A stretch of 64,000 nucleotides of DNA from an uncultured Bacteroidota bacterium (GCA_964563165.1 CAZLWA010000048.1:10086-74085); one strand, 5' to 3'. Counted from the first letter of the stretch, positions 1,771-54,085 are shown. Notes: generated by a model from the sequence alone, not told the origin. Numbers and translations: made by a program.

Positions 1771-1775
1771 ACGCA

Positions 1776-2810: not shown

Positions 2811-2837
2811 ACTATTTAATTTAATGTTAGGATTCTC

Positions 2838-4903: not shown

Positions 4904-4915
4904 ATTCAAAATCAT

Positions 4916-27728: not shown

Positions 27729-27752
27729 AGATCTTTTGGAAAATGAAAATTC

Positions 27753-28811: not shown

Positions 28812-28843
28812 GACTTGATTTTACTGTAAACGGGTAAGAAGTC

Positions 28844-29904: not shown

Positions 29905-29906
29905 AC

Positions 29907-31160: not shown

Positions 31161-31267
31161 AAAATTCAGAATTTTGACGCTGATATACGCTGATTATGTA
31201 TGACATTTATTTTAAAGTTCATAAAATATTTTCTGCGCCAATCATAAAGATCTTAATTAATCAGCGT

Positions 31268-32389
31268 CTAAATAACCTGAAACCCGTGGGCATACGGATC
31301 TTCGTCGTCTATGAAAATGGTATTGTGACCGGTAATATAAGCCCAGCCCTCGACACTCGGAATGATCGCTTCATAACTTCCGACCTTGGTCTGCGATTCC
31401 ACGCGCCCGCGAAACATACTGCCGATGATGCTTTCATGAATAAATGTATCCCCGACTTTCAATTTTCCTTTAGCCGCCCACTGCGCCATACGGGCGGAAG
31501 TGCCGGTGCCGCATGGAGAACGGTCTATCGCTTTATCTCCGTAAAACACTGCGTTGCGCGCATGGGCCTCAGAATTGTTCGGTTTGCCCGTCCACTCAAG
31601 ATGCGACAGCCCGCAAATCGTGGAATTTTCCGGATGAACAAATGAATATTTTTCATTCATGCGTTTTCGCACGACCGGGCTCCAGCGCAAAATATCGCCC
31701 GCGGTGATCGACTCGAGCCCCTGATAATTCTTTTGCGGGTCAACGATCGCATAATAATTTCCGCCGTAAGCTACGTCCACGGTGATCATTCCCAGATCAG
31801 GACATTCGATCTCCAACCCGCTGGAATGTAAATAGGAAGGCACATTGACAATACGAACAGATTTAACTTTACTGCCTTCCATCGTGTAATACACTTCCAC
31901 AATTCCGGCCGGGACTTCGAGCCGGAGTTTGCCCGGCGTTTTGGGCGTGACAAGTTTTTCTTCGATCATGACCGTTGCGGTTCCGATCGTGCCGTGCCCG
32001 CACATCGGCAGACAACCGCTGGTCTCGATAAAAAGGATCGCGGCATCAGAATCTTCGCGCGTTGTCGGGTACAAAATGCTTCCCGACATCATATCATGTC
32101 CGCGCGGCTCGAACATCAGCGCGGTGCGGATCCAGTCGTATTCTTTCAGGAAATGCTGACGCCGCTCGCTCATGTTTTTCCCCTCAAGCGAAGGCCCGCC
32201 GCTCGTGACAACACGAACCGGATTCCCGCACGTATGCGCGTCAATACATGAAAATGTTTTCTTTGCCATGGAAGAATATGATAAATTCTTTGGAAAGAAT
32301 CGAGAAAAAATGATCGACAGTTTTCCTTCAAAAGGGGTCGCGTTTTCGTGCCCCTTGGAAAGGGGGTTAGGCGGATTTTTAGTTTGCAC
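31268..32389 (-). CDS. Proline racemase-superfamily enzyme of the Cys/Cys type; predicted 4-hydroxyproline 2-epimerase. The true start is probably ATG at 32269 (MAKKTF…).
   Basis: Catalytic Cys in LPMCGHG and in IDRSPCGTG. The first 40 codons of the tracked ORF (MQTKNPPNPLSKG…) are translated from family-1 repeats. Confidence 0.75.
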   Translation of the reverse strand: MQTKNPPNPLSKGHENATPFEGKLSIIFSRFFPKNLSYSSMAKKTFSCIDAHTCGNPVRVVTSGGPSLEGKNMSERRQHFLKEYDWIRTALMFEPRGHDMMSGSILYPTTREDSDAAILFIETSGCLPMCGHGTIGTATVMIEEKLVTPKTPGKLRLEVPAGIVEVYYTMEGSKVKSVRIVNVPSYLHSSGLEIECPDLGMITVDVAYGGNYYAIVDPQKNYQGLESITAGDILRWSPVVRKRMNEKYSFVHPENSTICGLSHLEWTGKPNNSEAHARNAVFYGDKAIDRSPCGTGTSARMAQWAAKGKLKVGDTFIHESIIGSMFRGRVESQTKVGSYEAIIPSVEGWAYITGHNTIFIDDEDPYAHGFQVI

Positions 32390-32463
32390 GGACGGACTCT
32401 GTAAAACGTAAAATCGAGTAGGCTTTACGTTTTCTTCCCCCTTGTAAAGGGGTCAGCGGGATT
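32351..32463. repeat. Two family-1 GC-hairpin repeat copies (32351-32377 and 32437-32463) flanking a 10-bp perfect palindrome AAAACGTAAA…TTTACGTTTT
   Basis: The copies read CCCCTTGGAAAGGGGGTTAGGCGGATT and CCCCCTTGTAAAGGGGTCAGCGGGATT. Confidence 0.8.
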
Positions 32464-35134: not shown

Positions 35135-35599
35135 TCAAAAAATAAAACTCATACTTGCCGTAATTCCATTGGCAGAAAATGAGATCCAGAATGCTCTTCG
35201 CCAGGATACTTCACACAGCATCCTGATTAGAAGCCATTCGACTAAGACAACACTGACTTCAATTATAAACAGCGACGGGAGATGATGGCCTATCGTTACC
35301 GGCGCGAAGAGATCGATCAAGGACCAATACCCGTGCACCGCGAGCGGCTGCGTGAAGGTATTGACTAAAATGCAATATCCGGCATGCACCAGCGGACGGC
35401 GGTGAAGCCAGATCATCCAAATCGCATACTCCACCGCGACCGTCAATCCCCACGCGATAAGTAAGGTCATATCCACGAGTCTCCTTGTGATACGTGAATT
35501 TTCTTGGCTAAATTTTGAAATTAGAAAAAATGACGCCGGGTCTGAGTCAAGACTTTTTTCTACCTCCTTGGAAAGGGGGTTAGGGGGATTTTTGTGCAT
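35135..35599 (-). CDS. Small membrane protein (the true start is probably 35470, MTLLIAWGL…)
   Basis: A hydrophobic core. The N-terminal 43 codons of the tracked ORF (MHKNPPNPLSK…) come from a repeat and the overlapping DUF559 gene region. Confidence 0.45.
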   Translation of the reverse strand: MHKNPPNPLSKEVEKSLDSDPASFFLISKFSQENSRITRRLVDMTLLIAWGLTVAVEYAIWMIWLHRRPLVHAGYCILVNTFTQPLAVHGYWSLIDLFAPVTIGHHLPSLFIIEVSVVLVEWLLIRMLCEVSWRRAFWISFSANGITASMSFIF

Positions 35600-35979
35600 G
35601 CTTGCACAAATGCCTCGATCGCCTGCAACACGCTATCCGTCTTATTTCGAACTTCGCCTTCTGTAAATCGCAAAACAGTCAATCCCATCGCTTCCAGATC
35701 CCGCTGCCTTGAAATGTCCTTTTCATATACTTCTTTAAGTCCATGACTGTAACCGTCAACCTCGATAACAATCTTCATCGCTTTGCAATAAAAATCAACT
35801 ACATATTTCCCCAGTGGTTTTTGACGATTGAACTGCAGGCCGAAACATTTTCTGCCGCTCAGGTATCTCCAAAGCAGTGCTTCACCCAATGTCGAATTTT
35901 TTCTCAGCTTGCGTGAAACTTTTTTGAGATTCTTGTTATACGGTACGGTCTCCATCAAGATATTTGTTTGTTCGTCCAA
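35560..35979 (-). CDS. DUF559 (Vsr-like, PD-(D/E)xK) endonuclease-domain protein
   Basis: The 139-aa protein has the conserved core YVVDFYCKAMKIVIEVDGYSH…R…VLRF. Its stop lies inside a family-1 repeat, and an inverted repeat copy lies immediately upstream. Confidence 0.75.
   Translation of the reverse strand: MDEQTNILMETVPYNKNLKKVSRKLRKNSTLGEALLWRYLSGRKCFGLQFNRQKPLGKYVVDFYCKAMKIVIEVDGYSHGLKEVYEKDISRQRDLEAMGLTVLRFTEGEVRNKTDSVLQAIEAFVQACTKIPLTPFPRR
35564..35590. repeat. Family-1 repeat copy (CCTCCTTGGAAAGGGGGTTAGGGGGATT) at the 3' end of the DUF559 gene
   Basis: Read from the sequence. Confidence 0.8.
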
Positions 35980-35982
35980 GTA

Positions 35983-36010
35983 ATCCCCCTAACCCCCTTT
36001 TCAAGGGGGA
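35983..36010. repeat. Family-1 repeat copy in inverted orientation (AATCCCCCTAACCCCCTTTTCAAGGGGGA) at the 5' end of the DUF559 gene
   Basis: It is the reverse complement of the consensus CCCCCTTGAAAAGGGGGTTAGGGGGATT. Confidence 0.8.
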
Positions 36011-36014
36011 AAAG

Positions 36015-37538: not shown

Positions 37539-38561
37539 CTATAGTACAGGCCTGGTCGCCAAAGCTTTTTTCACAATTTCTTCAACTTGTTTTCTTTCCT
37601 CGCCGATCAACGGCAGACGCGGCGCGCGCACCGTTTCCGAACCCACGCCCACCAGGGCTTCCACGAGTTTAATATTTTGCACGAACTTAATGGATACATC
37701 CAAATGCAGCAGCGGCATGAACCAGCGATACAGTTTCACCGCTTCCTCAGTTCGATTGGTTTTCACCAATTGATACAAGGCAACCGTTTCTTTCGGAAAA
37801 GCGCACACCAAACCCGCGAGCCAACCCGACGCGCCAAGAATTAAACTTTCCATCGCCAGATCGTCAACACCGGAAAAAATCTGATAACGATTACCGACCT
37901 GATTGATAATGTCGGTCAAGCGCCGGATATTGTCCGAGGATTCCTTGATAGCAACAAATTTCGGCTCATCGGCTAATTCCGCAAACATATCCGGCGTAAT
38001 ATCCACGCGATACGCGACCGGATTATTGTAGATCATGATAGGCCGATCCGTCGCCGCAGCCACCGCCCGCAGATGCGCGATCGTTTCACGCCGGTCAGAA
38101 ACGTATTGCATCCCGGGCAGAACCATAAAACCGTCCGCGCCCAACTTCGCAGCGTTTTCAGTAAATTTACATGCGCCGGCCGTGGTCGTTTCCGCCACGC
38201 AGGACAAGACCGGAACTTTTCCTTTCGCAGCGCCGACCGCGGTTTTCAGCACATCCAATTTTTCTTCGGCCGTCAGCGTCCCGTTCTCTCCGAGCGAACC
38301 CAGCATGACTAATCCGTTTACGCCGGCATCCAATTGAAATTGGATATGCTTCTCGATCGCCGGAAAATCGATCGAGTAATCTTTTTTGAATTTCGTCGTC
38401 AACGCGGGAAAGATCCCGCTCCAATTTGTTTTCATTTTCAAATCCTTTTGTGTTATGCGCGCATAGAATCCCCCGCCGGAGCCTGCCCTGAGCAGGTCCT
38501 TCGTTTCGCTCAGGATAAACTTCGGAGCGCCCCCTTTAATCCCCCCCGCCGGAGCCTGCAC
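37539..38561 (-). CDS. Dihydrodipicolinate synthase-family lyase; candidate delta1-pyrroline-4-hydroxy-2-carboxylate deaminase. The true start is probably 38435.
   Basis: DapA/NAL-family Schiff-base lysine in VAIKESS and GxxGE motifs. The first 42 codons (MQAPAGGIKGG…) are translated from a family-1 repeat. Confidence 0.75.
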   Translation of the reverse strand: MQAPAGGIKGGAPKFILSETKDLLRAGSGGGFYARITQKDLKMKTNWSGIFPALTTKFKKDYSIDFPAIEKHIQFQLDAGVNGLVMLGSLGENGTLTAEEKLDVLKTAVGAAKGKVPVLSCVAETTTAGACKFTENAAKLGADGFMVLPGMQYVSDRRETIAHLRAVAAATDRPIMIYNNPVAYRVDITPDMFAELADEPKFVAIKESSDNIRRLTDIINQVGNRYQIFSGVDDLAMESLILGASGWLAGLVCAFPKETVALYQLVKTNRTEEAVKLYRWFMPLLHLDVSIKFVQNIKLVEALVGVGSETVRAPRLPLIGEERKQVEEIVKKALATRPVL

Positions 38562-38613
38562 TGAGCATCGCGAAGTGGCGCCCCCCTTTATTAAAGGGGG
38601 GTTCGGGGGGATT
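38467..38613. repeat. Family-1 long-variant repeat cluster (AATCCCCCGCCGGAGCCTG…CTTTATTAAAGGGGGGTTCGGGGGGATT)
   Basis: Termini AATCCCCC and GGGGGGATT, with internal hairpins CCTGAGC…GCTCAGG and CCCCCCTTTATTAAAGGGGGG. Confidence 0.8.
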
Positions 38614-42141: not shown

Positions 42142-45100
42142 TCAGTTAAACATATACCGTATGCCAAGCTGCATGCGCCAGCGTGACAGAGGTCCCGGGT
42201 CGTCTACAAACGTTTTGGCCGGTCCCACAAACTGAAATACTGGTTCTCCGCCGCCGTCAAATCCATAGAGCGACAAAGGCTTCGTGGCTTTAGAACTGGC
42301 GACTTTGCGCACGCCCCAGTCGGAATTGAAGAAATTGGCAAGATTCAGGATATCAAGGCTGATCTGTAATGTATGGCGCTGATTCCCTGATTTGAAAAGC
42401 ACATCCTGGGTGATACGCAGATCAATGTTACTATACCATGGATTCAGTGCTCCAAATCTTGCCGCATTTTTTCCACGGTTTTTGCTCAGGTAATCATCCT
42501 GTTTGATAAAAGCGTCGAAAGCCGTCCACTGCTGTGCTGCGGTCAGGCCGCTCGGAATATCTTGAAATACAATCTCACCCTGATTGGCGGGAATGTAGAT
42601 CAGATCATTGCCGGCGTTACCGTCGCCGTTGACGTCTCCGGCATAAGTAAACGAGTAACGATTGCCGCCTGCTCCCTGGAACGAATTACCTTCGGCGACC
42701 TCAAAAAAGAGACCGAACGTTGTGGCGAACTGTTCATTCCATTTGTGACGATAGGTGCTGTGGCCGATGATACGGTTGCGCTGGCCGAATTCGGAATTGG
42801 CCAGTCCGGGTCTATTAGGATCGCCCTGAACGGGATTTTCCTGGAAGAGCACACTGGCGATTTCAGTGGATTTCATCAGACTTTTGGCCACCATGTGTGT
42901 GTACGCAAGTCCTGAACTCATACCAAACGAAAAGTTTTTCCGAAACTGAGTCGTGAAGCTGTAGTTGAATCCCTTACTGGTGTTGTCGAGAACGTAAATA
43001 CCGGCGCCATCTGGATTCAGTTCATTGCTGCCGCTGCCGCCGTAATAGGGTCTGCCGCCGGCGCGTACCAGAACGGGGTGAGATGCGAGAGGTGTCACAA
43101 GATCGGCATTTCTCATATAAACCGCATTGATGTCCTTGCTGTAAACGAACTCCAGTGTTCCCAAAACGTCCCACGGCAATTTCTGGTCTACGGCAATATT
43201 GGTCGTCCAGACCTGCGGCCACTTGAAGTCTTTGACCACAGCGTTGAGGTCGAACGATTGAGTCGGAATCGTATTAGTTGAATCTTTGCCCGGTACCGGC
43301 ACGCCGCCTGCGGGCAGGTTAGGATTGAATCCGGGGTTGGAGATTATGTTTCCGATCCACACGAACGGGATTCTCCCGGTAAAGATTCCGGTACCGCCCC
43401 TAAATTGAGTGGATCGATCTCCGTTCAAGTCGAAGTTGAATCCGGCGCGAGGTGAGAATAGAGGCCTTGTGGACGGCAGCTTGGCCTGATCGACAAGTTC
43501 CGTATTGTCGCTTGCGTCCAGCGCTGTCAGCCCGGTGGAAAAAGGATTGGGCCTCGGTTTTGTGTAATACACCGGGAAGTCGACGCGCAAGCCACCTGTC
43601 AGTTTCAGTCGGTCGGTCGCTGCGAACTCATCCTGCGCATACACCGCAAATTGGCCTACTTTGATATTCTCGCCCTTGAATGGAACGTTACCGGCAACGT
43701 CCCCTTGAAAATCTACGCCTCCCGTACCGCCGGCCCCGCTATCGGTTGCTGCAAAGAAATCTGCGAGCGACAGAAAAGCCGTTGATCCCGGACCAAAAAA
43801 AGGATAAGCCGAGAATCCGAATAAACCGTTACGGAAAATGTTGAACGAGTTAAAGAAGCTGAACGTTTCGAAATTGGCACCGAACGTCATGACATGAGGG
43901 CCGGTGAAATAACTGAAGTTGTTGGTAAACTGCCATACGTCCTGGTCAAGAATGTTGTGCGAAGAGAACGGCTCGTGGCCGACCGTCGCGTAGGTTACGC
44001 CGCCCTCGGCGATTTCGATCGTCGGATATGGCCGGCTATTCGGGTTTCGGAAATCCCGAAACCGATTGTAGCTGGCAAAGAACCGGTTGCTGAATTTAGA
44101 AAAGCTGCTGTTGACTTCCAGGGCATAGGAACTCAGGTGATTGTTAATTTCGTATCCTGAATTCGAAAAAGGCAGAGTACTTTCATTGGGACCACGGCCG
44201 GAGCCGTTGATGGTGAGCACAAACGGATGGGGCCCTTTTTCCTGGCTGGCTCGCAGGTAGTTGAACCGGAAGCTGACTTTGTGATTCTCAGTGGCGTTCC
44301 AGTCCAGCTTGGTCAGGAATTTCTCATTGTTGGTCTTATGATCGTAACCCTGATACTCGCCCGGATCGTAACCGTAAACATTTTTCATCCGGTTGCGGAT
44401 AGAGTCCATGGTGGCTACCGTGACGCGTGAGACGCCAGCATTGCCACTATTGGTTCCGTTGTCGGCGACGAAGTCGCTGCCCGGATCCGTGCGGCGCTCA
44501 CTTTCAACATTGAAAAAGAAGAACAATTTGTCTTTGATCAGCGGGCCGCCAAAGTTAAACCCGGACTCCAAATAAGAAAGGTTTGGATTGGCGATTACAG
44601 TGTTTCCCCTTACGGTATTTCCGACGAAGCTTTCATTTTTGAAGTAAGAATAAATCGATCCGCGGAACATGTTAGTGCCGCTCTTGGTAACGGAGTTGAT
44701 ATTAGCTCCGGTGAAACCGCCTTCGCGTATATCGAACGGTGCGATCGAGACCTGAACCTGTTCGATGGCATCGAAGGGAACCGGCTCCGCATTCGTCTGT
44801 CCGCCCGGCGCGGGATTGTCCAGACCGAACGAGTTGTTGAAATAAGATCCGTCCAGAGACAAGTTATTGAACAGCCAATTGCGTCCGCCGAAGCTGAAGC
44901 TGCCGTCGCTGCGCGGGTCAAGCCGTGTCATATCCTGCGTTGACCGCTTGATGGACGGCAATTGGGCGAGATCAACAGTACTAATATAGGTGGCTGCTCC
45001 GGTGCGATCGCGGTTTAGAACTTCATCCCTCTCGGCGATGATCACGGTTTCTTCGCCCTGGATGGCCGTTTCGCTTAAACGAAAGGTGAGTTTGACCGTT

Positions 45101-45429
45101 TGGCCGATACTGACCGTGATGTCTTTTTCTTCCTGATCTTTATAACCGATGTAAGTTGCCTTCACGGTGTACGGCCCGCCGATGCGCATATTCAATATGC
45201 TGAAGGCTCCGCTGGAAGTCGATACGATACCGTAAACCGTTCCGCTGGGTTCGTGCGTGGCCGAGACATTGGCTCCGTAGAGCGGCTGGCCTTTCTCGTC
45301 CATGACGTACCCGCTGATAGCGCCCGTGGTGACTCCCTGGGCGAAGAGGGTGTGGCCCGTAAGCCACAGGACGCCTGCGGCCAGAACCATGCCTATCCGC
45401 CAGGATACGCGATGAGTACTTCTTCTCAT
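42142..45429 (-). CDS. TonB-dependent outer-membrane receptor, SusC/RagA-like, with an N-terminal carboxypeptidase-regulatory-like domain
   Basis: 1095 aa with a signal peptide, a CarbopepD_reg-like beta-sandwich (GYVMDEKGQPLYGANVS), a plug domain and a long barrel. Confidence 0.85.
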   Translation of the reverse strand: MRRSTHRVSWRIGMVLAAGVLWLTGHTLFAQGVTTGAISGYVMDEKGQPLYGANVSATHEPSGTVYGIVSTSSGAFSILNMRIGGPYTVKATYIGYKDQEEKDITVSIGQTVKLTFRLSETAIQGEETVIIAERDEVLNRDRTGAATYISTVDLAQLPSIKRSTQDMTRLDPRSDGSFSFGGRNWLFNNLSLDGSYFNNSFGLDNPAPGGQTNAEPVPFDAIEQVQVSIAPFDIREGGFTGANINSVTKSGTNMFRGSIYSYFKNESFVGNTVRGNTVIANPNLSYLESGFNFGGPLIKDKLFFFFNVESERRTDPGSDFVADNGTNSGNAGVSRVTVATMDSIRNRMKNVYGYDPGEYQGYDHKTNNEKFLTKLDWNATENHKVSFRFNYLRASQEKGPHPFVLTINGSGRGPNESTLPFSNSGYEINNHLSSYALEVNSSFSKFSNRFFASYNRFRDFRNPNSRPYPTIEIAEGGVTYATVGHEPFSSHNILDQDVWQFTNNFSYFTGPHVMTFGANFETFSFFNSFNIFRNGLFGFSAYPFFGPGSTAFLSLADFFAATDSGAGGTGGVDFQGDVAGNVPFKGENIKVGQFAVYAQDEFAATDRLKLTGGLRVDFPVYYTKPRPNPFSTGLTALDASDNTELVDQAKLPSTRPLFSPRAGFNFDLNGDRSTQFRGGTGIFTGRIPFVWIGNIISNPGFNPNLPAGGVPVPGKDSTNTIPTQSFDLNAVVKDFKWPQVWTTNIAVDQKLPWDVLGTLEFVYSKDINAVYMRNADLVTPLASHPVLVRAGGRPYYGGSGSNELNPDGAGIYVLDNTSKGFNYSFTTQFRKNFSFGMSSGLAYTHMVAKSLMKSTEIASVLFQENPVQGDPNRPGLANSEFGQRNRIIGHSTYRHKWNEQFATTFGLFFEVAEGNSFQGAGGNRYSFTYAGDVNGDGNAGNDLIYIPANQGEIVFQDIPSGLTAAQQWTAFDAFIKQDDYLSKNRGKNAARFGALNPWYSNIDLRITQDVLFKSGNQRHTLQISLDILNLANFFNSDWGVRKVASSKATKPLSLYGFDGGGEPVFQFVGPAKTFVDDPGPLSRWRMQLGIRYMFN

Positions 45430-45706: not shown

Positions 45707-45853
45707 TAATCCCTTTTAATCCCCGCCGGAACCTGACCTGAGTTCTTCCACTTCACTCAGGATAAACTCCGTCGAAAGGGCACCCACCTTTGGTAAAGGA
45801 GGGACATGGGAATTCGGTTTTCTGCCCCCTTGAAAAGGGGGTTAGGGGGATTT
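45707..45853. repeat. Family-1 repeat cluster (long variant plus canonical copy)
   Basis: AATCCCTTTTAATCCCCGCCGGAACCTGACCTGAG…GCCCCCTTGAAAAGGGGGTTAGGGGGATT. Confidence 0.8.
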
Positions 45854-45891
45854 TTGTTTTTCCCCAATATTGAAGAAGGTTCAGGGGAATC

Positions 45892-46704
45892 CTAATGCTT
45901 GAAGGCTTCCAGCGTTGTTGTTGTTCTATAGGGATTCCGGAAAAAATCTTCCAGGATCATATTGAACCAGTCCGGACGTTCGTACGCCCCGCCGTGCGTG
46001 GAACCCGGCATCACAAAAAGAAAGCCCTGCGGTATATTTTTGAATATCTCGGCCGAATGCTCGATCTGGATCGCGTCACGGTCTCCCATCATCACGAGAA
46101 ACGGCGCACGTATCTTGTGAAGGTCGGAAACGGGAATATGCGGTTCATAGATCAGCAAATGCATCAGTTGTTTTTCTTTCTTATTGGTGGATGCTTTCTC
46201 GACCTGTTCGGCAAAATGCAGCAGTTCAGCAACTACCGCTGTCGTATCCGGCCGTAAATTAGTTCCGAAGCCTGCCGCTTTGCGGACTTTATTAGGATAA
46301 TGTATGGAAAGCAATAGCGCCAATATCCCGCCGTCGCTTTGACCCCAGATGTACGCCGAATCGATCTTCAATGTGTCCAGAAGATCGTTAATATCTTTCG
46401 CCATCATTTCATAATTGAGTACGGAAGTGGAGTCGATCGATTTCCCGTGTGCGCGGCTGTCGATCGCAATGACTTTATATTTCTTCGAAAAATAATCTAT
46501 GCGATTTCGCTGATTGCCGATCGAACCGCCGTTACCGTGCAGCAAGACGAGCGGCGCACCTTCGCCGTAGATCTCATAGTACATCCTGATCCCATTGACC
46601 GAAACATATTTTCCCGCTTTCGGATTATTGCCGTACGGCGTCTGTGAAAAAGATATCCCATTTGCGATCAAAAATAAGAATAGAAAACAGCTGACTCGTT
46701 TCAT
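45892..46704 (-). CDS. Secreted alpha/beta hydrolase
   Basis: Signal peptide, nucleophile elbow GQSDGG, and an HG oxyanion motif (LLHGNGGS). Confidence 0.75.
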   Translation of the reverse strand: MKRVSCFLFLFLIANGISFSQTPYGNNPKAGKYVSVNGIRMYYEIYGEGAPLVLLHGNGGSIGNQRNRIDYFSKKYKVIAIDSRAHGKSIDSTSVLNYEMMAKDINDLLDTLKIDSAYIWGQSDGGILALLLSIHYPNKVRKAAGFGTNLRPDTTAVVAELLHFAEQVEKASTNKKEKQLMHLLIYEPHIPVSDLHKIRAPFLVMMGDRDAIQIEHSAEIFKNIPQGFLFVMPGSTHGGAYERPDWFNMILEDFFRNPYRTTTTLEAFKH

Positions 46705-46768
46705 ACAGATTTCTCCAAAACAATTAATGGTTGAAAATGATTTTAATACGCAAGGAGTTAGAGAATGT

Positions 46769-46944
46769 TCTGTTTTCTTCCCCCTTGAAAAGGGGGTTAG
46801 GGGGATTATTTCCCGTCGGAGCTTGTCCTGGGCGCAGACGAAGGGGCGCCCTAAGAATCCCCCCGCTTCGCTCGCCCCCTTTAGTAAAGGGGGCTGATAA
46901 GATTCTGTTTTCTTCCCCCTTGAAAAGGGGGTTAGGGGGATTTC
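46769..46944. repeat. Two canonical family-1 copies (46769-46806 and 46906-46944) flanking a GC-rich variant segment
   Basis: TTCTTCCCCCTTGAAAAGGGGGTTAGGGGGATT occurs twice. Confidence 0.85.
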
Positions 46945-46958
46945 TTTTTCACTACTTG

Positions 46959-47225
46959 TTAATCATAATGAGTCCACATGCGCAAAATTTTCACGAAATG
47001 AATTTCTTTCAGAACCTGGTAAACAATGCGGTGTTGAATATTGATCCTGCGGGAGTAAGCTCCTAAGAGATCTCCCACGAGTTTTTCATAAGGCGGCGAA
47101 TTTCGGAATGGATTTTCTTCTAATATATCTAAAATGGATTCTGATTTGGGTTTCAAACCTGCTGCCGCCAGTTTTTTGGCGTCTTTCTGAGCTTGTTTGG
47201 TAAAACCAAGCCGCCATCTTACCAC
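46959..47225 (-). CDS. yoeB: YoeB/Txe-family type II toxin (mRNA interferase)
   Basis: 88 aa with C-terminal YSRRINIQHRIVYQV…HY that matches the YoeB signature. It overlaps the upstream antitoxin gene. Confidence 0.8.
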   Translation of the reverse strand: MVRWRLGFTKQAQKDAKKLAAAGLKPKSESILDILEENPFRNSPPYEKLVGDLLGAYSRRINIQHRIVYQVLKEIHFVKILRMWTHYD

Positions 47226-47455
47226 TTCAATTTCCTTGAGAGCTTCTGGACCGGAGTTTTCATGCCTTGCACGATAGATTTTTTCATACCCGGAATGGAG
47301 ATCAAAAACAATGTTTCCTGGATCGCGCGCCAGTCTTCTTCGGAAATGATCACGGCATTGCCGTGTTTGCCGGTGACGTAGATCGGCTCATTCGATACGT
47401 CATCGATCAGGTTGTATATGTTTTGACGAACTTTGCTGACGGTTAATGTTTTCAT
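47219..47455 (-). CDS. yefM: YefM/Phd-family antitoxin
   Basis: 78 aa: MKTLTVSKVRQNIYNLIDDVSNEPIYVTGKHGNAVIISEEDWRAIQETL. Confidence 0.8.
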   Translation of the reverse strand: MKTLTVSKVRQNIYNLIDDVSNEPIYVTGKHGNAVIISEEDWRAIQETLFLISIPGMKKSIVQGMKTPVQKLSRKLKW

Positions 47456-47542
47456 AATAAGTTCTTGCTTTCAGAAACGTACGTAATTACGTACGTAATA
47501 GCAAGTGAAAAAAAACCGAGACTAAGGAATTTCGGTTTTATT

Positions 47543-47716
47543 CCCCCTTGAAAAGAGCCTGTCCCGAGCTTGGCGAGGGAGGGTTAGGGGGATTATTACC
47601 CGCCTGAGCCAGCCTTGAGCGCAGCCGAAGGAGCGCCCCCCTTTGGTAAAGGGGGGACTTGGTAACAGACGATTTCTGAATTCCCCCCTTTATTAAAGGG
47701 GGGGTTCGGGGGGATT
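47543..47716. repeat. Composite family-1 repeat. It is a canonical copy with the CCTGAGC-type motif inserted into its hairpin loop, plus a long-variant copy.
   Basis: CCCCCTTGAAAAG-AGCCTGTCCCGAGCTTGGCGAGG-GAGGGTTAGGGGGATT … CCCCCCTTTGGTAAAGGGGGG…CCCCCCTTTATTAAAGGGGGGTTCGGGGGGATT. Confidence 0.8.
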
Positions 47717-48150
47717 CTTTTCTCGACTTCACTTTCGATCATCTTACAAACACCGTCAAATTCATGCAGCACTTCGTAATTGGTAAATCTCAAAACCTTC
47801 AATTTGTAAGCCTCAAGCACTTTCGTGCGGCCTTTGTCATAATCTTTTCCGTCGTCCGTATAATGGCTATCGCCATCCACTTCAATCACCAATTTCAGTT
47901 TAGCACAATAAAAATCTACAATATAATGATCGATGGGCTTTTGTCTCAGAACGGGAAATTTTAAATGCTTTAAAAAGCCATGCCAGAGTTTCTTCTCCGC
48001 CCGTGTCATGGTTCTCCTGAGAGTCCGCGCACGCTCCTTAAGCTTAGGATTGAAAGGCAAGTGATGGCCGGTGGTAATGAGGCCTTTGGCTTTGGCGTCG
48101 TTTTTCATTTCATAGGTTCCCTTTTTTAATCCCCCCGGCGGAGCCTGCAC
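47596..48150 (-). CDS. DUF559 (Vsr-like) endonuclease-domain protein. The core gene is about 47720-48105. Both termini of the tracked ORF are translated repeats.
   Basis: Core HYIVDFYCAKLKLVIEVDGDSH…VLRFTNYEV. The C-terminal tail PPNPPFNKGG… and the N-terminal MQAPPGGLKKG come from family-1 repeats. Confidence 0.75.
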   Translation of the reverse strand: MQAPPGGLKKGTYEMKNDAKAKGLITTGHHLPFNPKLKERARTLRRTMTRAEKKLWHGFLKHLKFPVLRQKPIDHYIVDFYCAKLKLVIEVDGDSHYTDDGKDYDKGRTKVLEAYKLKVLRFTNYEVLHEFDGVCKMIESEVEKRIPPNPPFNKGGNSEIVCYQVPPLPKGGAPSAALKAGSGG

Positions 48151-48246
48151 TGAGCATCGCGAAGTGGCGCCCCCCTTTGGTAAAGGGGGGACTTGGTAAC
48201 AGACGATTTCTGAATTCCCCTTTATTAAAGGGGGGTTCGGGGGGAT
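48128..48246. repeat. Family-1 long-variant copy (AATCCCCCCGGCGGAGCCTGCACTGAGC…GGGGGGTTCGGGGGGATT)
   Basis: About 95% identical to the copies at 47637-47716 and 48519-48597. Confidence 0.85.
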
Positions 48247-48273
48247 TCTCTTGGAGCACTCGAGGAGACCATC

Positions 48274-48462
48274 TTATTTTTTTAGCCAATTGGATAATCG
48301 CTGTTCAGCAGCTTGATGAGAAATGCCTTTGCCTTCGTCCAATTCTTTCAACCCCTGATCCACTTGCATTTTGAAATGAAGCTCTTCTATAATATCTTCA
48401 ACGGTCGAACTCTTGGGCATTTTCTTGATTATCTTAATGACGTGATCTTTTACTGCAGGCAT
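48274..48462 (-). CDS. Putative orphan addiction-module antitoxin (small coiled-coil protein)
   Basis: 62 aa: …STVEDIIEELHFKMQVDQGLKELDEGKGISHQAAEQRLSNWLKK. No cognate toxin is adjacent; a family-1 repeat lies where one would be expected. Confidence 0.5.
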   Translation of the reverse strand: MPAVKDHVIKIIKKMPKSSTVEDIIEELHFKMQVDQGLKELDEGKGISHQAAEQRLSNWLKK

Positions 48463-48497
48463 GCGTTCTCCTTAAAATGATATGCTGCCCCTCCCAA

Positions 48498-48597
48498 AAT
48501 CCCCCGCCTTCGGCGCCCCCCTTTGGTAAAGGGGGGACTTGGTAACAGACGATTTCTGAATTCCCCCCTTTTATTAAAGGGGGGTTCGGGGGGATTC
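48498..48597. repeat. Family-1 long-variant copy
   Basis: AATCCCCCGCCTTCGGCGCCCCCCTTTGGTAAAGGGGGGACTTGGTAACAGACGATTTCTGAATTCCCCCCTTTTATTAAAGGGGGGTTCGGGGGGATT. Confidence 0.85.
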
Positions 48598-49040
48598 TCC
48601 TGAGCGAGCGAAGCGAGTCGCAGGAGTCATTCCCACGAACGCGGGAATCTATTTCACATCCTCAAATCAGGCTAATTAGAGATTTTATTCCATTCTTTGA
48701 TGCGTCTGATCGCTTCACTAATTTGTTTTTCCAAATCTAATTGTCCAACTAGGTTTTGTTTCGTCAAGAACTTTGAAATTTTTGCGGCGAACAAAACTTT
48801 GTTTTGGAGAAACTTACTGCCTTCGTCTTTCCTGAATTATTTCTTCCAATAATAATATTAATAGGTAATATCGAATCAAATCCATGTTCAACTTCCTTGA
48901 AACATTTATGGTGTTTTAATTTTGATTGATGTCTTGTCTAACATTACTGATCTCTTCCAAATGCGAAAAAAGGCACAAAACCTTCCCATTTTCGGGACGT
49001 CTTGTGCCTTAAATTAAAATTACTTTTCTAATTCAGCTTT

Positions 49041-49156
49041 GCGTCCCCCTGACGCGGAAAATCCCCCGCCTTCGCGGAGCCTGTCCTGAGCGATAGCGAA
49101 GGGCTCAGGCCGCCCCCTTTATTAAAGGGGGCAAGCGCCGAAGGTGCTGGGGGATT
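49041..49156. repeat. Family-1 long-variant copy abutting the nrdJ stop
   Basis: AAAATCCCCCGCCTTCGCGGAGCCTGTCCTGAGCGATAGCGAAGGGCTCAGGCCGCCCCCTTTATTAAAGGGGGCAAG…GGGGGATT. Confidence 0.8.
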
Positions 49157-52100
49157 CTACGAGCACCCCATGCTATTCCCGCAGTTCAGGCATTTGTAGC
49201 ATGCGCCGTTGCGCACGGTCATATGCCCGCACACGTCGCACGCGGGTGCGTCGCCCATCATCTCGCTCAGATGTTTATCGAGTAAATTCTGCGAAGTTTC
49301 TTTCGGGGTCTCCGCGGGCGTATGGTCCACGACCGTCGGCGTAGCCGGGTCGTGCGATTCGCCGTTGAGCGTCGGCGGAATGTGAACGAAATCCATGCGC
49401 TTGAGATATTCCATGCCGAGCACGCGGAAAATAAAATCCAGTATCGAGGTCGCGTTTTTGATGTTCGGGTGATTCGTAAATCCGCTCGGCTCGAAGCGCG
49501 TGAATGTGAATTTCTCCACGAATTTGTCCAGCGGCACGCCGTACTGCAGTCCCATTGAGACCGCGACGGCAAAACAGTTGAGTAAACTGCGGTAGGCTGC
49601 GCCTTCTTTGAACATATCGATGAAGATCTCGCCGATCTGGTTGTCATCGTATTCTCCGGTGCGGAAATAAATTTTATGTCCGCCCATTTCGACTTCCTGC
49701 GTGAATCCCTGCCGTTTGTGCGGCATCGGTTTTTTCTGCCCGCGGCGTAATTCTCTGCCGGACTTTTCGATCGCGTCCTGAACGGCTTTATCCAATTGCG
49801 CTTGCGTGATCGTCATCTCGTCTTCGACCGATTCTTTGGAGGACGATTTATTGCTGAGCGGCTGGGAGAATTTCGATCCGTCGCGGTAGAGCGCCACGGC
49901 TTTGAGCCCGAGCTTCCAGCCTTCGAAATAAATGCGCTCGATATCTTTTACGGTCGCTTCCGAAGGAATATTTACCGTTTTGGAGATCGCACCGGAGAGG
50001 AACGGCTGAACCGCACCCATCATCTTCACGTGCCCCATCGGGTCGATGTAGCGTTTGCCGATACCGCATTTATTCGCGCAGTCGAACACCGCGAGATGTT
50101 CTTCTTTCATTAAGTGAGTTCCTTCCACGGTCTGCGCGCCGGCGATATAGATCACCGCGCGTGAGATCTGTTCACCGGAAAGGCCTTTTTGCTTCAGCGT
50201 CTTGATATTGATATGCGGCGTCCATTCGTCCAGCGATTTATTTTTATTGACGTAAGCTTCGGCTTCGGCAATTTCAGGATCCGTGAAACCCATTTGTTTC
50301 AGTTGTTCCGGATTCACATAGGGCGCACCGTCGAATGTGCCGTGGCCGAGAATGTATTTGATGATACCGTCGATCTCTTCTTTATTATATCCTAATTTGC
50401 CGAGCGATTGCGGAATGGAGCCGTTGACGATCTTGAAATATCCGCCGCCGGCTAATTTTTTCCATTTCACCAAAGAGAATTCCGGTTCGACGCCGGTCGT
50501 GTCGCAATCCATCAAAAGCCCGATCGTTCCCGTTGGGGCAAGCACCGTCGCCTGCGCATTGCGGTAACCGAACTGGCCGCCCATGGCCACGCAGGCGTCC
50601 CAGTCTTCGCGCGCCGCACGGACCAGGTCGTCCGGGCAAAATTCGTTACTGATTTTATAAGCCGCATCGCGGTGTTTGTTCATCACGCGCATCATCGGTT
50701 TTTCATTTTTCTTGTAGCCGGGAAAAGCGCCTTTGACGGAAGCCACCTCCGCGGAACCGCGGAATCCCCACGCATGCATGATCGCGGTGATCGCGCCGGC
50801 CCACGCTCTGCCTTCTTCGGAATCGTACGGAATGCCGTTGACCATCAATAGGGTCCCTAAATTCGCATAACCCAATCCGAGCGGGCGGTAATCGTGGCTG
50901 TTCTGCGCAATTTTCTGGGTCGGGTAGGAAGACATGTCCACGAGAATTTCCTGCGCGATAATGAACACGCGGCAGGCTTCGCGGAATCCTGCGATATCGA
51001 ATTTGCCGGATTCATCGGAACATTTCATCAAATTGACCGACGCGAGATTGCAGGCGGTATCGTCGAGGAACATATATTCCGAGCAGGGATTCGACGCGTG
51101 AATCTTGTCGGTCGACGGGCAGGTGTGCCAGTCATTGATCGTGTCGTCGAATTGAATGCCGGGATCGGCGCATGCCCATGCGGCGTAAGAAATTTGATCG
51201 AACAGATCGCGCGCTTTGTAGGTATCGATGACTTCGCCGGAAGTGCGCGACGTGGTTTTCCATTCGCCGTCGTCGAGAACGGCGTTCATGAATTTATCGG
51301 AAACGCGGACCGAGTTGTTGGAGTTTTGTCCGGAGACGGTTTGGTACGCTTCGCCGTTGAAATCGCTGTCGTATCCGGCGTCGATGAGGGCTTTGACTTT
51401 CTTTTCTTCTTTCACTTTCCAATTGATGAAATCCACGATCTCCGGGTGGTCCATATCGAGGCAGACCATTTTCGCCGCACGGCGCGTGGTGCCGCCGGAT
51501 TTGGTCGCACCCGCTCCGCGGTCCAGAACGCTCAGGAACGACATGAGGCCCGAGGACGTTCCTCCGCCGGAAAGTTTTTCCTGTTTGCCGCGCAAAGATG
51601 AAAAATTGCTGCCCGTGCCGGAACCGTATTTGAAAAGCCGGGCTTCGTTCTTGGCCAATTCAAAAATGCCCATCAGGTCGTCACTCACCGCCTGAATGAA
51701 GCACGCCGAGCATTGCGGATGTGAATACGAATCGGGGGTCATTTCGATGTTGCCTGTTTTAGGATTCCAAAAATAATTTCCGCCCGAACCTTCGATATGA
51801 TATTCCTGGGAAAGGCCGCAATTGAACCAGACCGGCGAATTGAATGCGCCCATTTGATTGACTAGCAGATGCGTGAGTTCCATTTCAAAGATCTCGGCAT
51901 CGTTCTTCGAATCGAAGTATCCTAATTTTTCACCTTCCGCCCGGATCGTATGCGCGACGCGATAGACCAATTGTTTGGCGCTCGTTTCATTGCCGGTTCC
52001 AGGTACTCCCGCTTTGCGGAAATATTTGGAGGCTGCGATGTCCGTAGCCAATTGCGACCAGCTTTTGGGGATATCGAGGTCCTTCATTTCGAAAACAACT

Positions 52101-52306
52101 CTGCCGTCCGGCTCGGTGATCACGCTCGTGCGCTTTTCCCATTCGATCGCGTCGAACGGGTGAACGCCTTCTTTGGTGAAATAGCGTTTGAAACGCAATC
52201 CTTTCGCGCCGTCGTAGGCGATCCCGTTGATGGTGCGCGGGGTGGACTTGCTCGGGGACGGTTTTTTTGCATCCTTGACTTGGGCATCAGGGTTCTGAAG
52301 GGCCAT
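49157..52306 (-). CDS. nrdJ: Adenosylcobalamin-dependent (class II) ribonucleoside-diphosphate reductase
   Basis: The 1049-aa protein has the RNR catalytic core (NPCSEY) and the class II C-terminal Zn-ribbon CDVCGHMTVRNGACYKCLNCGNSMGC. Confidence 0.9.
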   Translation of the reverse strand: MALQNPDAQVKDAKKPSPSKSTPRTINGIAYDGAKGLRFKRYFTKEGVHPFDAIEWEKRTSVITEPDGRVVFEMKDLDIPKSWSQLATDIAASKYFRKAGVPGTGNETSAKQLVYRVAHTIRAEGEKLGYFDSKNDAEIFEMELTHLLVNQMGAFNSPVWFNCGLSQEYHIEGSGGNYFWNPKTGNIEMTPDSYSHPQCSACFIQAVSDDLMGIFELAKNEARLFKYGSGTGSNFSSLRGKQEKLSGGGTSSGLMSFLSVLDRGAGATKSGGTTRRAAKMVCLDMDHPEIVDFINWKVKEEKKVKALIDAGYDSDFNGEAYQTVSGQNSNNSVRVSDKFMNAVLDDGEWKTTSRTSGEVIDTYKARDLFDQISYAAWACADPGIQFDDTINDWHTCPSTDKIHASNPCSEYMFLDDTACNLASVNLMKCSDESGKFDIAGFREACRVFIIAQEILVDMSSYPTQKIAQNSHDYRPLGLGYANLGTLLMVNGIPYDSEEGRAWAGAITAIMHAWGFRGSAEVASVKGAFPGYKKNEKPMMRVMNKHRDAAYKISNEFCPDDLVRAAREDWDACVAMGGQFGYRNAQATVLAPTGTIGLLMDCDTTGVEPEFSLVKWKKLAGGGYFKIVNGSIPQSLGKLGYNKEEIDGIIKYILGHGTFDGAPYVNPEQLKQMGFTDPEIAEAEAYVNKNKSLDEWTPHINIKTLKQKGLSGEQISRAVIYIAGAQTVEGTHLMKEEHLAVFDCANKCGIGKRYIDPMGHVKMMGAVQPFLSGAISKTVNIPSEATVKDIERIYFEGWKLGLKAVALYRDGSKFSQPLSNKSSSKESVEDEMTITQAQLDKAVQDAIEKSGRELRRGQKKPMPHKRQGFTQEVEMGGHKIYFRTGEYDDNQIGEIFIDMFKEGAAYRSLLNCFAVAVSMGLQYGVPLDKFVEKFTFTRFEPSGFTNHPNIKNATSILDFIFRVLGMEYLKRMDFVHIPPTLNGESHDPATPTVVDHTPAETPKETSQNLLDKHLSEMMGDAPACDVCGHMTVRNGACYKCLNCGNSMGCS

Positions 52307-53579: not shown

Positions 53580-53674
53580 TACATGTTTCCCCACGAAACA
53601 CACGAAAAAGGCACGAAAAATTTTAATGCAAAATACAAGTGATTGCCCGCGAAATACGCGAAACATGCGAAAAA
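53580..53674. repeat. Family-2 repeat array in CACGAAA orientation upstream of the GxxExxY gene
   Basis: CCCCACGAAACACACGAAAAAGGCACGAAAAA … TTGCCCGCGAAATACGCGAAACATGCGAAAAA. Confidence 0.8.
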
Positions 53675-54085
53675 ATGAATACAAAAAATATTGTCTTTGC
53701 TGAAGAAAGCTACAAAATCCTCGGGGCATGTTTCAATGTTTACAAAGCGAAAGGGTGCGGATTTTTAGAGGCAGTCTATCATGAATGCCTGCAAATAGAA
53801 TTTGAATTTCAGAAAATTCCTTTTGTATCCCAGAAGGAACTGGCAATAGAATATCGAGATCGGCTACTCAAACAAAACTACAAAGCCGATTTTATTTGTT
53901 TTGACAAGATCATCGTTGAAATAAAGGCGGCTTCCAAAATAATCGATGAACACCGGGCACAGGTATTGAATTATGTTAATGCGACAAATTCTAAACTCGG
54001 CATTTTGGTCAATTTCGGACATTATCCTAAATTGGAATACGAACGGTTTGCGTTGACTGAAAAAAAAGTTACAAAAACAGTTTAA
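53639..54085 (+). CDS. GxxExxY-family protein (PD-(D/E)xK-like). The true start is probably ATG at 53675.
   Basis: GCGFLEAVYHECLQIEF (the GxxExxY motif) and DFICFDKIIVEIK (a PD-(D/E)xK core). It is inserted between sdhC and sdhA and bracketed by inverted repeat arrays. Confidence 0.75.
   Translation: MIAREIRETCEKMNTKNIVFAEESYKILGACFNVYKAKGCGFLEAVYHECLQIEFEFQKIPFVSQKELAIEYRDRLLKQNYKADFICFDKIIVEIKAASKIIDEHRAQVLNYVNATNSKLGILVNFGHYPKLEYERFALTEKKVTKTV

Follow-up and report, generated by a model that had tools for sequence, protein, structure and literature searches.

Organisation of the repeat-dense island

The interval at 45707-49156 of the window (the 64-kb stretch of DNA that was analysed, drawn from an 86.8-kb metagenome-assembled contig) lies between a TonB-dependent receptor gene and nrdJ. 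It contains six clusters of G/C-run hairpin repeats, located at 45718-45852, 46766-46942, 47531-47716, 48128-48247, 48498-48596 and 49060-49156, with other hairpins at 48600-48650 adjoining the fifth of these. A preliminary description of the region had recognised the repeats but counted five clusters. The sequence CCCCCTTN5AAGGGGG, allowing one mismatch at most, was matched 10 times against 0.01 expected, and GGGGGATT 17 times against 3.4 expected. Together with Pfam matches for the intervening genes, these frequencies far above chance bear out the earlier picture of a repeat-dense island holding a hydrolase, a YefM-YoeB pair and a DUF559 gene. The family also occurs outside this interval, at 32349-32463, 35560-35590, 35982-36013 and 38464-38613. 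Its members are short, GC-rich, imperfect palindromes that are dispersed, extragenic, multicopy and mosaic in construction. The distances between them (1091, 762, 534, 45, 301, 48 and 548 bp) are irregular and the 'spacers' are genes; with palindromic, mosaic units and no family matched in an Rfam search of the region, the view that this is not a CRISPR array holds.

All accessory genes of the island are on the minus strand. The alpha/beta hydrolase gene (45892..46704; 270 aa; Pfam Abhydrolase_1, E=4e-22) is situated between direct copies of the type-A half-site defined below. The adjacent, overlapping genes for YoeB (46959-47225; Pfam PF06769; TIGR02116, 90.6 bits against a cutoff of 51.8) and YefM/Phd (47219-47455; Pfam PF02604) have the Phd/YefM and Txe/YoeB arrangement of a type II toxin-antitoxin system. 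A further gene at 48274..48462, described earlier as an orphan antitoxin, encodes 62 aa that gave no HMM match. The part of that label that stands is genomic context: all five plasmid homologues (5/5) were found at a RelE/ParE toxin gene, no such toxin gene follows 48274-48462 here, and the product is thus termed a putative antitoxin from its neighbourhood. The small accessory genes share one strand and each is followed by an imperfect palindrome of 76-135 bp.

The interval therefore does hold genes of accessory type, as had been proposed, and it also holds decayed DNA. The AT-rich stretch noted earlier is real, with a GC content of about 33% at 48700-49000. The start-less frame on the minus strand, previously given as about 55 aa at 48655-48820, comprises 54 codons at 48675..48836. 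It aligns with the very C-terminal end of OLD/GajA/AriA-type AAA_15/AAA_21 ATPases that are 509-572 aa long (E=2.5e-7), a match that identifies it, by homology, as a true remnant of an OLD/GajA/AriA-like ATPase gene. At least one gene has thus been reduced to its last 54 codons, in agreement with the suggestion of gene decay; a homology search with the AT-rich DNA upstream of the remnant, as far as 49059, returned no match.

Sequence plan of the repeats

The basic half-site follows the plan X'-loop-X-linker-X-AT, with the AT side facing the DUF559 gene, and in the window reads C5-6, loop, G5-6, TTA or TTC, G5-6, ATT. Gene-less copies take two forms, the lone half-site and the 76-135-bp AATC6...G6ATT element. 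The ends of elements are AATC5-6 and G5-6ATT (GATC in cyanobacteria), and the linker between runs varies (TAA, GAA, TTC, AA or TAG). Elements are found mainly at the 3' ends of genes, with gaps of -2 to 39 bp. Their single-strand folds are stable, with z mostly between -4.3 and -5.2. The exception is the 135-bp composite element at 45718..45852 (plus strand, as are the coordinates of the elements that follow; z -1.3), which lies 39 bp past the hydrolase stop codon and consists of an AATCCCC left end, degenerate inner modules and a type-A half-site, CCCCCTTGAAAAGGGGGTTAGGGGGATT, at 45825-45852.

The second cluster (46766..46942; dG -23.1, z -4.8) comprises a type-A half-site with leader (46766-46807), the left part of a truncated element (46808-46855) and a complete 87-bp element, AATCCCCCC...GGGGGATT, at 46856-46942. 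In the third (47531..47716; dG -31.4, z -4.5), a type-A half-site split by a 25-nt insertion (47531-47594) precedes a long-variant element (47595-47716) that contains two hairpins and a 26-nt linker and ends in TTCGGGGGGATT. The 120-bp long-variant element at 48128..48247 (dG -31.3, z -5.2) has perfect 10-bp termini, AATCCCCCCG and CGGGGGGATT, and its right half-site is 26 bp past the stop codon of the 62-aa gene. The third near-identical long copy, of 99 bp, is at 48498..48596 (dG -28.4, z -4.3). As reported earlier, the three long variants (47633-47718, 48167-48249 and 48513-48598) are closely similar: they are 96.5-97.7% identical, and indels in homopolymer runs are their sole differences. 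The last member of the island, a 97-bp single-hairpin element at 49060..49156 (dG -30.4, z -4.6), directly abuts the nrdJ stop codon with zero gap. Outside the island, two adjacent elements occupy 38464..38613 (dG -23.6, z -4.3), with a DHDPS-family gene on one side and a DinB/YfiT-like gene on the other. The 76-bp second element (38538-38613) represents the single-hairpin type in its minimal form, and the final two bases of this element belong to the TAA stop codon of its neighbour. Two degenerate type-A half-sites occupy an intergenic region at 32349..32463.

The DUF559 genes and their flanking half-sites

The window contains two DUF559 copies, 44% identical to each other and both on the minus strand. 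DUF559 gene 1 (47596..48108; PF04480, E=1.5e-29) is a 170-aa ORF in which residues 1-131 form the nuclease and residues from about 132 to 170 are read-through into a repeat element; pLDDT in the AF2 model exceeds 90 for the former and is 51-69 for the tail. The gene ends in a type-C half-site (47683-47716, in the third cluster), which constitutes the downstream end of a unit spanning about 47683-48190, and just upstream lies the long-variant element at 48128..48247, also with a type-C half-site, whose left part forms the upstream end. The second unit (35560..36013, 454 bp; 139-aa ORF; NF007294, E=1e-22) terminates in mirror-image type-A half-sites at 35560-35590 (plus) and 35982-36013 (minus). 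Each DUF559 gene is accordingly bracketed by its own half-site subtype, and both subtypes also occur nearby as gene-less copies.

The sole ORF of a unit encodes a DUF559 (PF04480) protein with a PD-(D/E)XK fold and belongs to no recognised transposase class. The protein matches PDB 3HRL (E=4e-25) and is a relative in both sequence and fold of the homing endonuclease I-Bth0305I (PDB 3R3P; E=3e-5, TM 0.83). It belongs to the Vsr-like (EDxHD) group on the basis of PF04480, the Vsr-like fold and the conserved acidic and His residues E76, D78 and H82 within IEVDGxxH. The long variants in the island flank DUF559 gene 1 as direct rather than inverted copies, and gene-less AATC6...G6ATT elements have a polarity opposite to that of the gene-bearing unit; parsing of these sequences as 'element' or as 'junction' is therefore ambiguous.

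Linkage of half-sites to DUF559 genes in other genomes

For comparison, we assembled 79 DUF559 loci from other genomes belonging to many phyla. Their flanks are built as a hairpin, a short linker and a second G-rich hairpin arm with AT next to the gene, the two ends being mirror images. The X'-loop-X-linker-X plan was found in 39/75 upstream and 33/75 downstream flanks compared with 2.6% of control windows. The strict half-site pattern, whose background is 0.05 per kb, occurred within 200 bp upstream in 30 of the 79 loci and just downstream in 25. The inverted repeats running from flank to flank are 45-90 bp long and in 45/69 loci exceeded every control of the same geometry; by this control test no flank repeat was detected in about a third of the loci. 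Within one genome the flanking half-site has the sequence of the dispersed copies, and it differs between lineages. DUF559 homologues at 39-68% identity are spread over widely differing phyla.

In homologues from many phyla the protein ends with IP[PL]xPP..KGG, a translation of the repeat. The downstream half-site is read in all three frames (14, 5 and 3 loci) and lies beyond the stop codon in 11/22 loci, from which we conclude that the constraint acts on DNA and not on protein. In a reciprocal scan in which 80 metagenome loci were picked by the half-site alone, DUF559 is encoded at four, each of which shows the geometry expected. Overall, half-sites are enriched at DUF559 genes at least 20-fold, with a fixed spacing and orientation on either side of the gene in many phyla, and both the repeats and their linkage to the gene recurred in about 160 independent loci, some of them from complete genomes. 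Judged by sequence comparison, these data demonstrate that the association of DUF559 with the repeats is tight, crosses phyla and operates at the DNA level. DUF559 is the partner gene of the repeat family and not mere cargo; its earlier treatment as one more passenger is not supported, since both copies in the window and most of the 79 loci carry the repeats as their two ends. Our literature search found no description of a link between DUF559 and hairpin repeats, and the pairing across many phyla points to what may be an undescribed kind of selfish DNA element.

The same evidence bears on the assembly. The contig is metagenome-assembled, and identical 86-bp repeats, three copies of which differ in homopolymer length alone and whose size is within reach of short-read k-mers, could have caused mis-joins in the gene order of the island. 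That unrelated loci were joined in this way is nevertheless distinctly unlikely, given the recurrence of the repeats and of their linkage to DUF559 in those independent loci and the intact flanking core genes.

The arrangement of small genes on one strand, among them the toxin-antitoxin pair, each with a palindrome of 76-135 bp behind it, could also be read as a cassette array of the integron kind, in which clustered attC sites have no integrase. We find this barely credible: most repeat copies lack the attC core sites RYYYAAC and GTTRRRY and the linker varies, no tyrosine recombinase or integrase was found in the window, single repeats also adjoin core genes located 7-13 kb away, and in unrelated genomes they flank DUF559 on both sides.

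Evidence bearing on possible mobility

Units sharing 90-97% identity across 450-600 bp occupy non-homologous flanks. Everted repeat pairs are bimodal in their spacing, with 34 having gaps of 24-63 bp (mode 50-57), 23 having gaps of 357-610 bp and only three in between; the wide-gap pairs hold the gene inside, and the same terminal inverted repeats are common to gene-bearing and gene-less forms. In a syntenic relative about 70% identical at the nucleotide level (L094), a 130-bp everted pair is located between sufD and sufS, which are separated by 13 bp in the window. No direct repeats indicative of target-site duplication were detected outside 22 units, the boundaries of which were set by local alignment and are imprecise; within these limits the units lend no support to classical transposition. 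The comparison of synteny proposed in the preliminary description revealed five differing neighbourhoods downstream of nrdJ in the closest available relatives (77-86% aa identity of nrdJ), with no copy of the repeat in these relatives; this establishes that the repeat family is lineage-restricted and nothing more.

A role for the repeats mainly as RNA 3'-end hairpins that stabilise or punctuate transcripts, maintained by selection and spread by unrelated means, with DUF559 carrying UTR structures of its own, would account for the stable hairpins and for the orientation of the half-sites, of which 11/12 in the window point the same way with respect to co-directional genes, mostly just past stop codons; effects of REPs and MITEs on mRNA stability are documented (PMC3184786). 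However, no T-run follows the hairpins on the gene-sense strand, the terminator-like matches all being antisense, and no Rfam family was matched. Such a role also leaves unexplained why mirror-image copies lie upstream of DUF559, why everted pairs are bimodal and why the sufD-sufS operon of the relative contains an insertion. As a main explanation we consider it fairly unlikely, and an RNA role could in any case be compatible with mobility of the repeats.

It is similarly unlikely that these are ordinary REP/BIME-type palindromes, moved by a RAYT (Y1 HUH transposase) encoded elsewhere, with repeats gathering at gene ends and so coming to adjoin DUF559. They do resemble such sequences in being short, GC-rich, intergenic and mosaic palindromes mostly at gene 3' ends, their doublets resemble REPINs, and the folds of their single strands are stable (z -4.3 to -5.2). 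On the other hand, the GTAG or CGTC tag is absent from the hairpin base, a search of some 50 large ORFs in the 64-kb window found no Y1 transposase, and passive gathering cannot account for a two-sided enrichment of at least 20-fold at DUF559 in many phyla or for units that carry repeats into new flanks.

Predicted targets of programmed inversion are enriched for DUF559 and for 'endonuclease domain-containing' proteins (odds ratios of 14 and 9.6, respectively; PMC9881135), and the DUF559 enrichment fits the presence of flanking inverted repeats. These figures, with the repeat length of 45-90 bp, would favour inversion sites of a phase-variable switch over ends of a mobile unit. We regard this as very improbable, as no invertase adjoins either DUF559 copy in the window and the dozens of gene-less copies and the identical units in different flanks would be unexplained.

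Proposed origin of the island

On balance we lean towards the view that the island is a pile-up of one hairpin-repeat family, which would be the terminal module of DUF559-only units and would have spread through the nuclease. Such a unit, of about 0.45-0.63 kb, would consist of a half-site, a DUF559 gene of the Vsr/EDxHD type and a second half-site in mirror image, both AT ends pointing towards the gene; two would be present in the window, every other copy being a gene-less derivative. The nuclease may recognise the half-site and nick or cut there, and homing-style break repair from another repeat-bearing copy, or a transposition-like step, could then spread both the unit and its gene-less forms. 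The functional link between nuclease and repeat spread that we infer is correlative. We know of no strand-transfer activity in a nuclease of about 130 aa. Homing of the DUF559 gene would be consistent with the identical units in new flanks and with the finding that a single chromosomal site in E. coli is occupied alternatively by ycjD or by the eef operon (PMC12817139). Recombination among repeats might also have trapped the hydrolase, YefM-YoeB and orphan antitoxin cassettes and truncated the ATPase gene beside nrdJ.

More tentatively, stand-alone DUF559 genes with X'-loop-X-linker-X-AT ends might represent an unrecognised, domain-wide class of bacterial mobile element, driven by a Vsr/EDxHD-type nuclease alone, that gives rise to hairpin repeats resembling REPINs or MITEs (E. 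coli boxC and small cyanobacterial repeats possibly among them) and can capture and shuffle small gene cassettes via break repair. If so, an integron-like island could arise without an integrase, through break repair between repeats.

Comparison with known systems

In E. coli, ycjD (DUF559) is followed by CCCCTC-G-CCCCTCT-GG-GGAGAGGG-TTA-GGGTGAGGGG, an X'-loop-X-TTA-X plan. This GC-rich repeat is dispersed (median of 16 places per E. coli genome) and is probably 'boxC'; it differs from the repeats of the window in arm sequence and is seen on one side of ycjD only.

The system resembles REPIN-RAYT in having short, GC-rich, intergenic hairpin repeats that are dispersed and form inverted doublets, and a single-copy enzyme gene bracketed by inverted repeat copies whose sequence co-varies with the gene between lineages. 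Unlike in REPIN-RAYT, the enzyme and repeat-flanked gene is DUF559, a Vsr/EDxHD-type PD-(D/E)XK nuclease rather than an HUH tyrosine transposase, and the half-site has an additional copy of the 3' hairpin arm (X'-loop-X-linker-X). Moreover, REP palindromes carry a conserved GTAG (or CGTC) tag at one end (PMC3733652), which DUF559 units lack. With insertion sequences and MITEs the units share terminal inverted repeats of 30-90 bp, filled and empty sites, and an 'autonomous' gene-bearing form alongside a short gene-less form of discrete size with the same ends. They differ in having no recognised transposase (DDE, HUH, serine or tyrosine) and in length, at 0.45-0.63 kb compared with 0.8-2 kb for insertion sequences (PMC3733652). 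The EDxHD homing endonuclease I-Bth0305I has a catalytic fold in common with DUF559, and DUF559, like it, would be an enzyme of a selfish element. I-Bth0305I resides in a group I intron of a phage and has a single cognate target, whereas the genes for DUF559 described here are free-standing and chromosomal, and are bounded by hairpin repeats that exist in many gene-less copies.

Hairpin repeats and gene remnants in the island

The interval 45707-49156, which lies between the TonB-dependent receptor gene and nrdJ, contains six repeat clusters rather than the five counted in the preliminary description. G/C-run hairpin motifs greatly exceed chance expectation, one giving 10 matches against 0.01 expected and another 17 against 3.4. 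The three long variants of the repeat (47633-47718, 48167-48249 and 48513-48598), already noted as near-identical, indeed have 96.5-97.7% identity, with homopolymer indels as their sole differences. Alignment of seven repeat copies revealed a modular plan. From an AATC5-7 left end, the elements pass through an optional inner hairpin module, the C6-loop-G6 hairpin, in some copies a 26-nt linker plus another hairpin, and a TTC or TTA linker to reach a G5-6ATT right end. The recurring basic unit, which we designate the half-site, consists of C5-6, a loop, G5-6, a 2-4-nt linker, G5-6 and ATT, and occurs as type A (CCCCCTTGAAAAGGGGGTTAGGGGGATT) or type C (CCCCCCTTTATTAAAGGGGGGTTCGGGGGGATT). Single-strand folding gave dG values of -23 to -31 kcal/mol and z of -4.3 to -5.2 for most elements, the degenerate first cluster forming a weaker fold (z -1.3). 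After the third long variant, two hairpins of other types are present at 48600-48650, CTCCTGAGCGAGCGAAGCGAGTCGCAGGAG and ATTCCCACGAACGCGGGAAT, the former similar to the inner 'CCTGAGC...CGAAGG' module of the repeat elements. The family is also found outside the island, at 32.3, 35.6, 36.0 and 38.5 kb.

One orientation is shared by 11 of the 12 half-sites in the window, and most are located -2 to 39 bp past the stop codon of the preceding minus-strand gene; one element directly abuts the nrdJ stop codon and another overlaps the TAA of its neighbour. The repeats may have a role at the RNA level; however, the hairpins are not followed by a T-run on the gene-sense strand, and all terminator-like matches are antisense. 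At the gathering threshold, the sole Rfam match in the window is a tRNA-Sec (18858-18953; RF01852, 65 bits), and the 26-nt linker of the long variants had no match in a metagenome scan. Readings of the island as a CRISPR array or as an integron were tested and rejected. Comparison of synteny around nrdJ, proposed earlier as a check on mobility, was uninformative, as the neighbourhoods all differ in five relatives (77-86% at the amino acid level) and the repeat is absent around nrdJ in each. Elsewhere in the window, ORFs listed at 35135-35599 and 37539-38561 begin within repeat elements (MHKNPPNPLSKE..., MQAPAGGIKGG...), and their 5′ ends are probably over-extended via repeat read-through; the alternative GTG start of the DUF559 gene in the island shows the same effect. 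Degenerate half-sites also follow the last gene of a cluster at 26742-32389 (two proline-racemase-family paralogues, ornithine cyclodeaminase, a DAO-type oxidase and an S37-type peptidase), which looks like a pathway of proline or hydroxyproline catabolism.

Every gene from the TonB-dependent receptor (42142-45429) through nrdJ (49157-52306) is carried on the minus strand, in an order that is provisional where the metagenome-assembled contig crosses identical 86-bp repeats. Pfam or NCBIfam matches identify an alpha/beta hydrolase (45892-46704), YoeB (46959-47225), YefM/Phd (47219-47455) and a DUF559 protein (gene 1, 47596-48108). Exact-sequence look-ups with the nrdJ and DUF559 proteins of the window found no match on record. 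A 62-aa ORF (48274-48462) matched nothing in Pfam or NCBIfam, even when E-values up to 10 were allowed, but its earlier designation as an orphan antitoxin is reasonable from gene context, since all five plasmid homologues are located at a RelE/ParE toxin gene and no toxin gene follows at the island locus. The AT-rich DNA said to carry gene remnants drops to ~33% GC and does contain one, a start-less minus-strand frame of 54 codons (48675-48836). This frame aligns with the last ~50 residues of OLD/GajA/AriA-type AAA_15/AAA_21 ATPases that are 509-572 aa long (E=2.5e-7), and is therefore the 3′ end left from a truncated defence-type ATPase gene. A tblastn search of plasmids gave no match to the remnant, and its identity emerged only from the full HMMER search.

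Many DUF559 genes are bracketed by half-sites

DUF559 is not a bystander among the repeats. Gene 1 terminates within a type-C half-site, and directly upstream of it lies a long-variant element that contains a type-C half-site. A second DUF559 gene in the window (gene 2, 35560-35979; 44% identity to gene 1) is bracketed by a type-A half-site (35560-35590) and its mirror image (35982-36013). The 170-aa ORF of gene 1 reads through the repeat, and AlphaFold assigns pLDDT >90 to residues 1-131 and 51-69 to the repeat-encoded tail. Homologues at 54-68% identity are found in cyanobacteria, Margulisiibacteriota, Chitinispirillaceae and others, and nearly all of them end in IP[PL]xPP..(F/L)xKGG, which is translated repeat.

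When representative genomes were scanned with an alignment of DUF559, 80 loci were returned, and 79 of these were analysed. The same flank arrangement, in which a C-run, loop, G-run, linker and G-run-AT precede the gene and an AT-C-run, linker, C-run, loop and G-run follow it, recurs in cyanobacteria, Chloroflexia, Aminicenantes, Stahlbacteria, Thiobacillus, Competibacter, Gracilibacteria, Leptospiraceae and Trueperaceae. The strict half-site pattern is present upstream in 30 of 79 loci and downstream in 25 of 79, against a background of 0.05 per kb. A sequence-agnostic test with 6-nt exact arms detected the plan X'-loop-X-linker-X (a hairpin followed by a second copy of one arm) in 39/75 upstream and 33/75 downstream flanks, compared with 2.6% of control windows. 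Moreover, the flank-to-flank inverted repeat exceeded all same-geometry controls in 45 of 69 loci (median score 41 versus 18), with arms of 45-90 bp and units of 440-630 bp. At about one third of DUF559 loci, these tests detected no flank repeat. The plan also holds in Clostridia and a viral contig, where the arms are different (CCTCCC/GGGAGG, CCTTCTCC/GGAGAAGG). Downstream half-sites occur in all three frames (14/5/3) and lie entirely past the stop codon in 11 of 22 loci, indicating that conservation is in the DNA and not in a protein tail. Flanking and dispersed copies in a genome share one half-site subtype, which differs between lineages. Tandem half-site arrays were observed in Microcoleus (169-bp units; locus L017, 15615-16319), Aminicenantes (64-bp units; L021, 9535-9860) and Gracilibacteria of the candidate phyla radiation (42-bp units; L042, 4323-4475), and an array of alternating orientations in Okeania (L026, 10352-11506).

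In PDB, the DUF559 profile has matches to 3HRL (E=4e-25) and to the catalytic domain of I-Bth0305I (3R3P, E=3e-5), a Vsr-like 'EDxHD' homing enzyme (PMC3239194). Foldseek with the predicted model gave TM scores of 0.84 to 3HRL and 0.83 to 3R3P, and weaker matches to PvuRts1I, AbaSI, an R2 retrotransposon protein, TnsA and Vsr. Within IEVDGxxH, the acidic and His positions (E76, D78, H82) are invariant across the alignment, both window copies included. Repeat ends are also found in the window at a small PD-(D/E)XK nuclease gene of a second kind, a 148-aa PDDEXK_3 gene (53639-54085; PF13366, E=1.5e-39) bracketed by inverted repeats of another family (53586-54256), one example of which is TTCCCCACGAAACACACGAAAAA / TTTTTCGTGTCTTTCGTGGGGAA (23 nt, 96% complementary); several tandem repeat copies lie downstream.

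Signs of mobility

Some units are 90-97% identical over 450-600 bp while the surrounding flanks do not align, for example between loci L002 and L011, among four Microcoleus genomes and between two Floridaenema genomes. Some loci with near-identical units have only one flank in common, as expected if repeated units mediate rearrangements. When the type-A half-site alone was used in a reciprocal metagenome scan, four of the 80 returned loci encode DUF559, and all four genes directly adjoin the half-site in the predicted orientation. Gaps within everted pairs (two half-sites with AT ends inward) are bimodal over all loci: 34 measure 24-63 bp (mode 50-57), 23 measure 357-610 bp and three lie between. 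The pairs with 357-610 bp gaps enclose the DUF559 gene, and the short class consists of elements of ~105-115 bp with conserved ends and drifting spacers; the two classes stand to each other as an autonomous element does to its internally deleted, MITE-like form. An everted pair of the short class, 104 bp arm to arm (~130 bp with flanks), is located between sufD and sufS in a metagenome contig (Ga0164242_10000658, L094 793-896) that is syntenic with window positions 358-5712 at ~70% nucleotide identity. The window has 13 bp at the corresponding position (~4903-4916), and the element is present on many other contigs of the same metagenome. No target-site duplications were seen around 22 units, and screening of ~50 large ORFs of the window detected no transposase, integrase or RAYT. 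The long variants around DUF559 gene 1 are direct copies, and the polarity of AATC6...G6ATT elements is opposite to that of the gene-bearing unit; elements of the latter form may represent a separate mobile form, or junctions at which neighbouring units are fused.

E. coli ycjD, a DUF559 gene, appears to have the same plan. Downstream of ycjD in K-12 (L235, NC_000913.3 1351000-1351800) lie a decayed second copy of the gene's 3′ end and then a GC-rich repeat, CCCCTCGCCCCTCTGGGGAGAGGGTTAGGGTGAGGGG, which has an X'-loop-X-TTA-X plan and occurs at a median of 16 dispersed sites per E. coli genome. This repeat probably belongs to the boxC family. BoxC is 56 bp long with ~32 copies (PMC2267715). The region beyond fabI differs in ~38% of E. 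coli genomes. This polymorphism was rejected as a clean empty site, being the known alternative in which ycjD or the eefRABCD operon occupies the fabI-sapF site (PMC12817139); one differing genome carries a TetR/RND efflux operon there, matching eef, which was lost at least twice in E. coli (PMC12817139).

Discussion

To our knowledge, the widespread DUF559 family (PF04480) has no assigned role, and we know of no mobilising enzyme for several small hairpin-repeat families. Small dispersed repeats in cyanobacteria were reportedly described by Elhai et al. in 2008. The DUF559-repeat association is not described in the literature that we found to mention DUF559. Predicted targets of programmed inversion are enriched for DUF559 and for 'endonuclease domain-containing' proteins (odds ratios 14 and 9.6; PMC9881135), as flanking inverted repeats would produce.

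The association itself is solid. As to how DUF559 might spread the repeats, we infer that the nuclease would cut at or near half-sites and that the unit would spread by repair from another repeat-bearing copy, while DNA between two repeats could travel along. Cutting, repair and carry-along would account for an array in which near-identical repeats separate small cassettes, and also for truncation of the ATPase gene. The reproducible link gives both partners a testable function, and explains the odd proline/glycine tails (IPPNPP..KGG) that gene callers give DUF559 proteins; since ycjD apparently has the same plan, the idea can be tested in E. coli. For annotation, the repeats mark sites where small accessory and defence genes gather and decay.

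The closest analogy is REPIN-RAYT, in which an enzyme gene is likewise bracketed by inverted hairpin repeats, many doublets lack a gene, and gene and repeat co-vary. Unlike in that system, the repeats here lack REP tags, no RAYT was found among the ~50 large ORFs of the window, and the enzyme is a PD-(D/E)XK nuclease. With this link, the 'repeat plus guardian gene' pattern, which to date had been seen with RAYTs alone, gains a second enzyme class.
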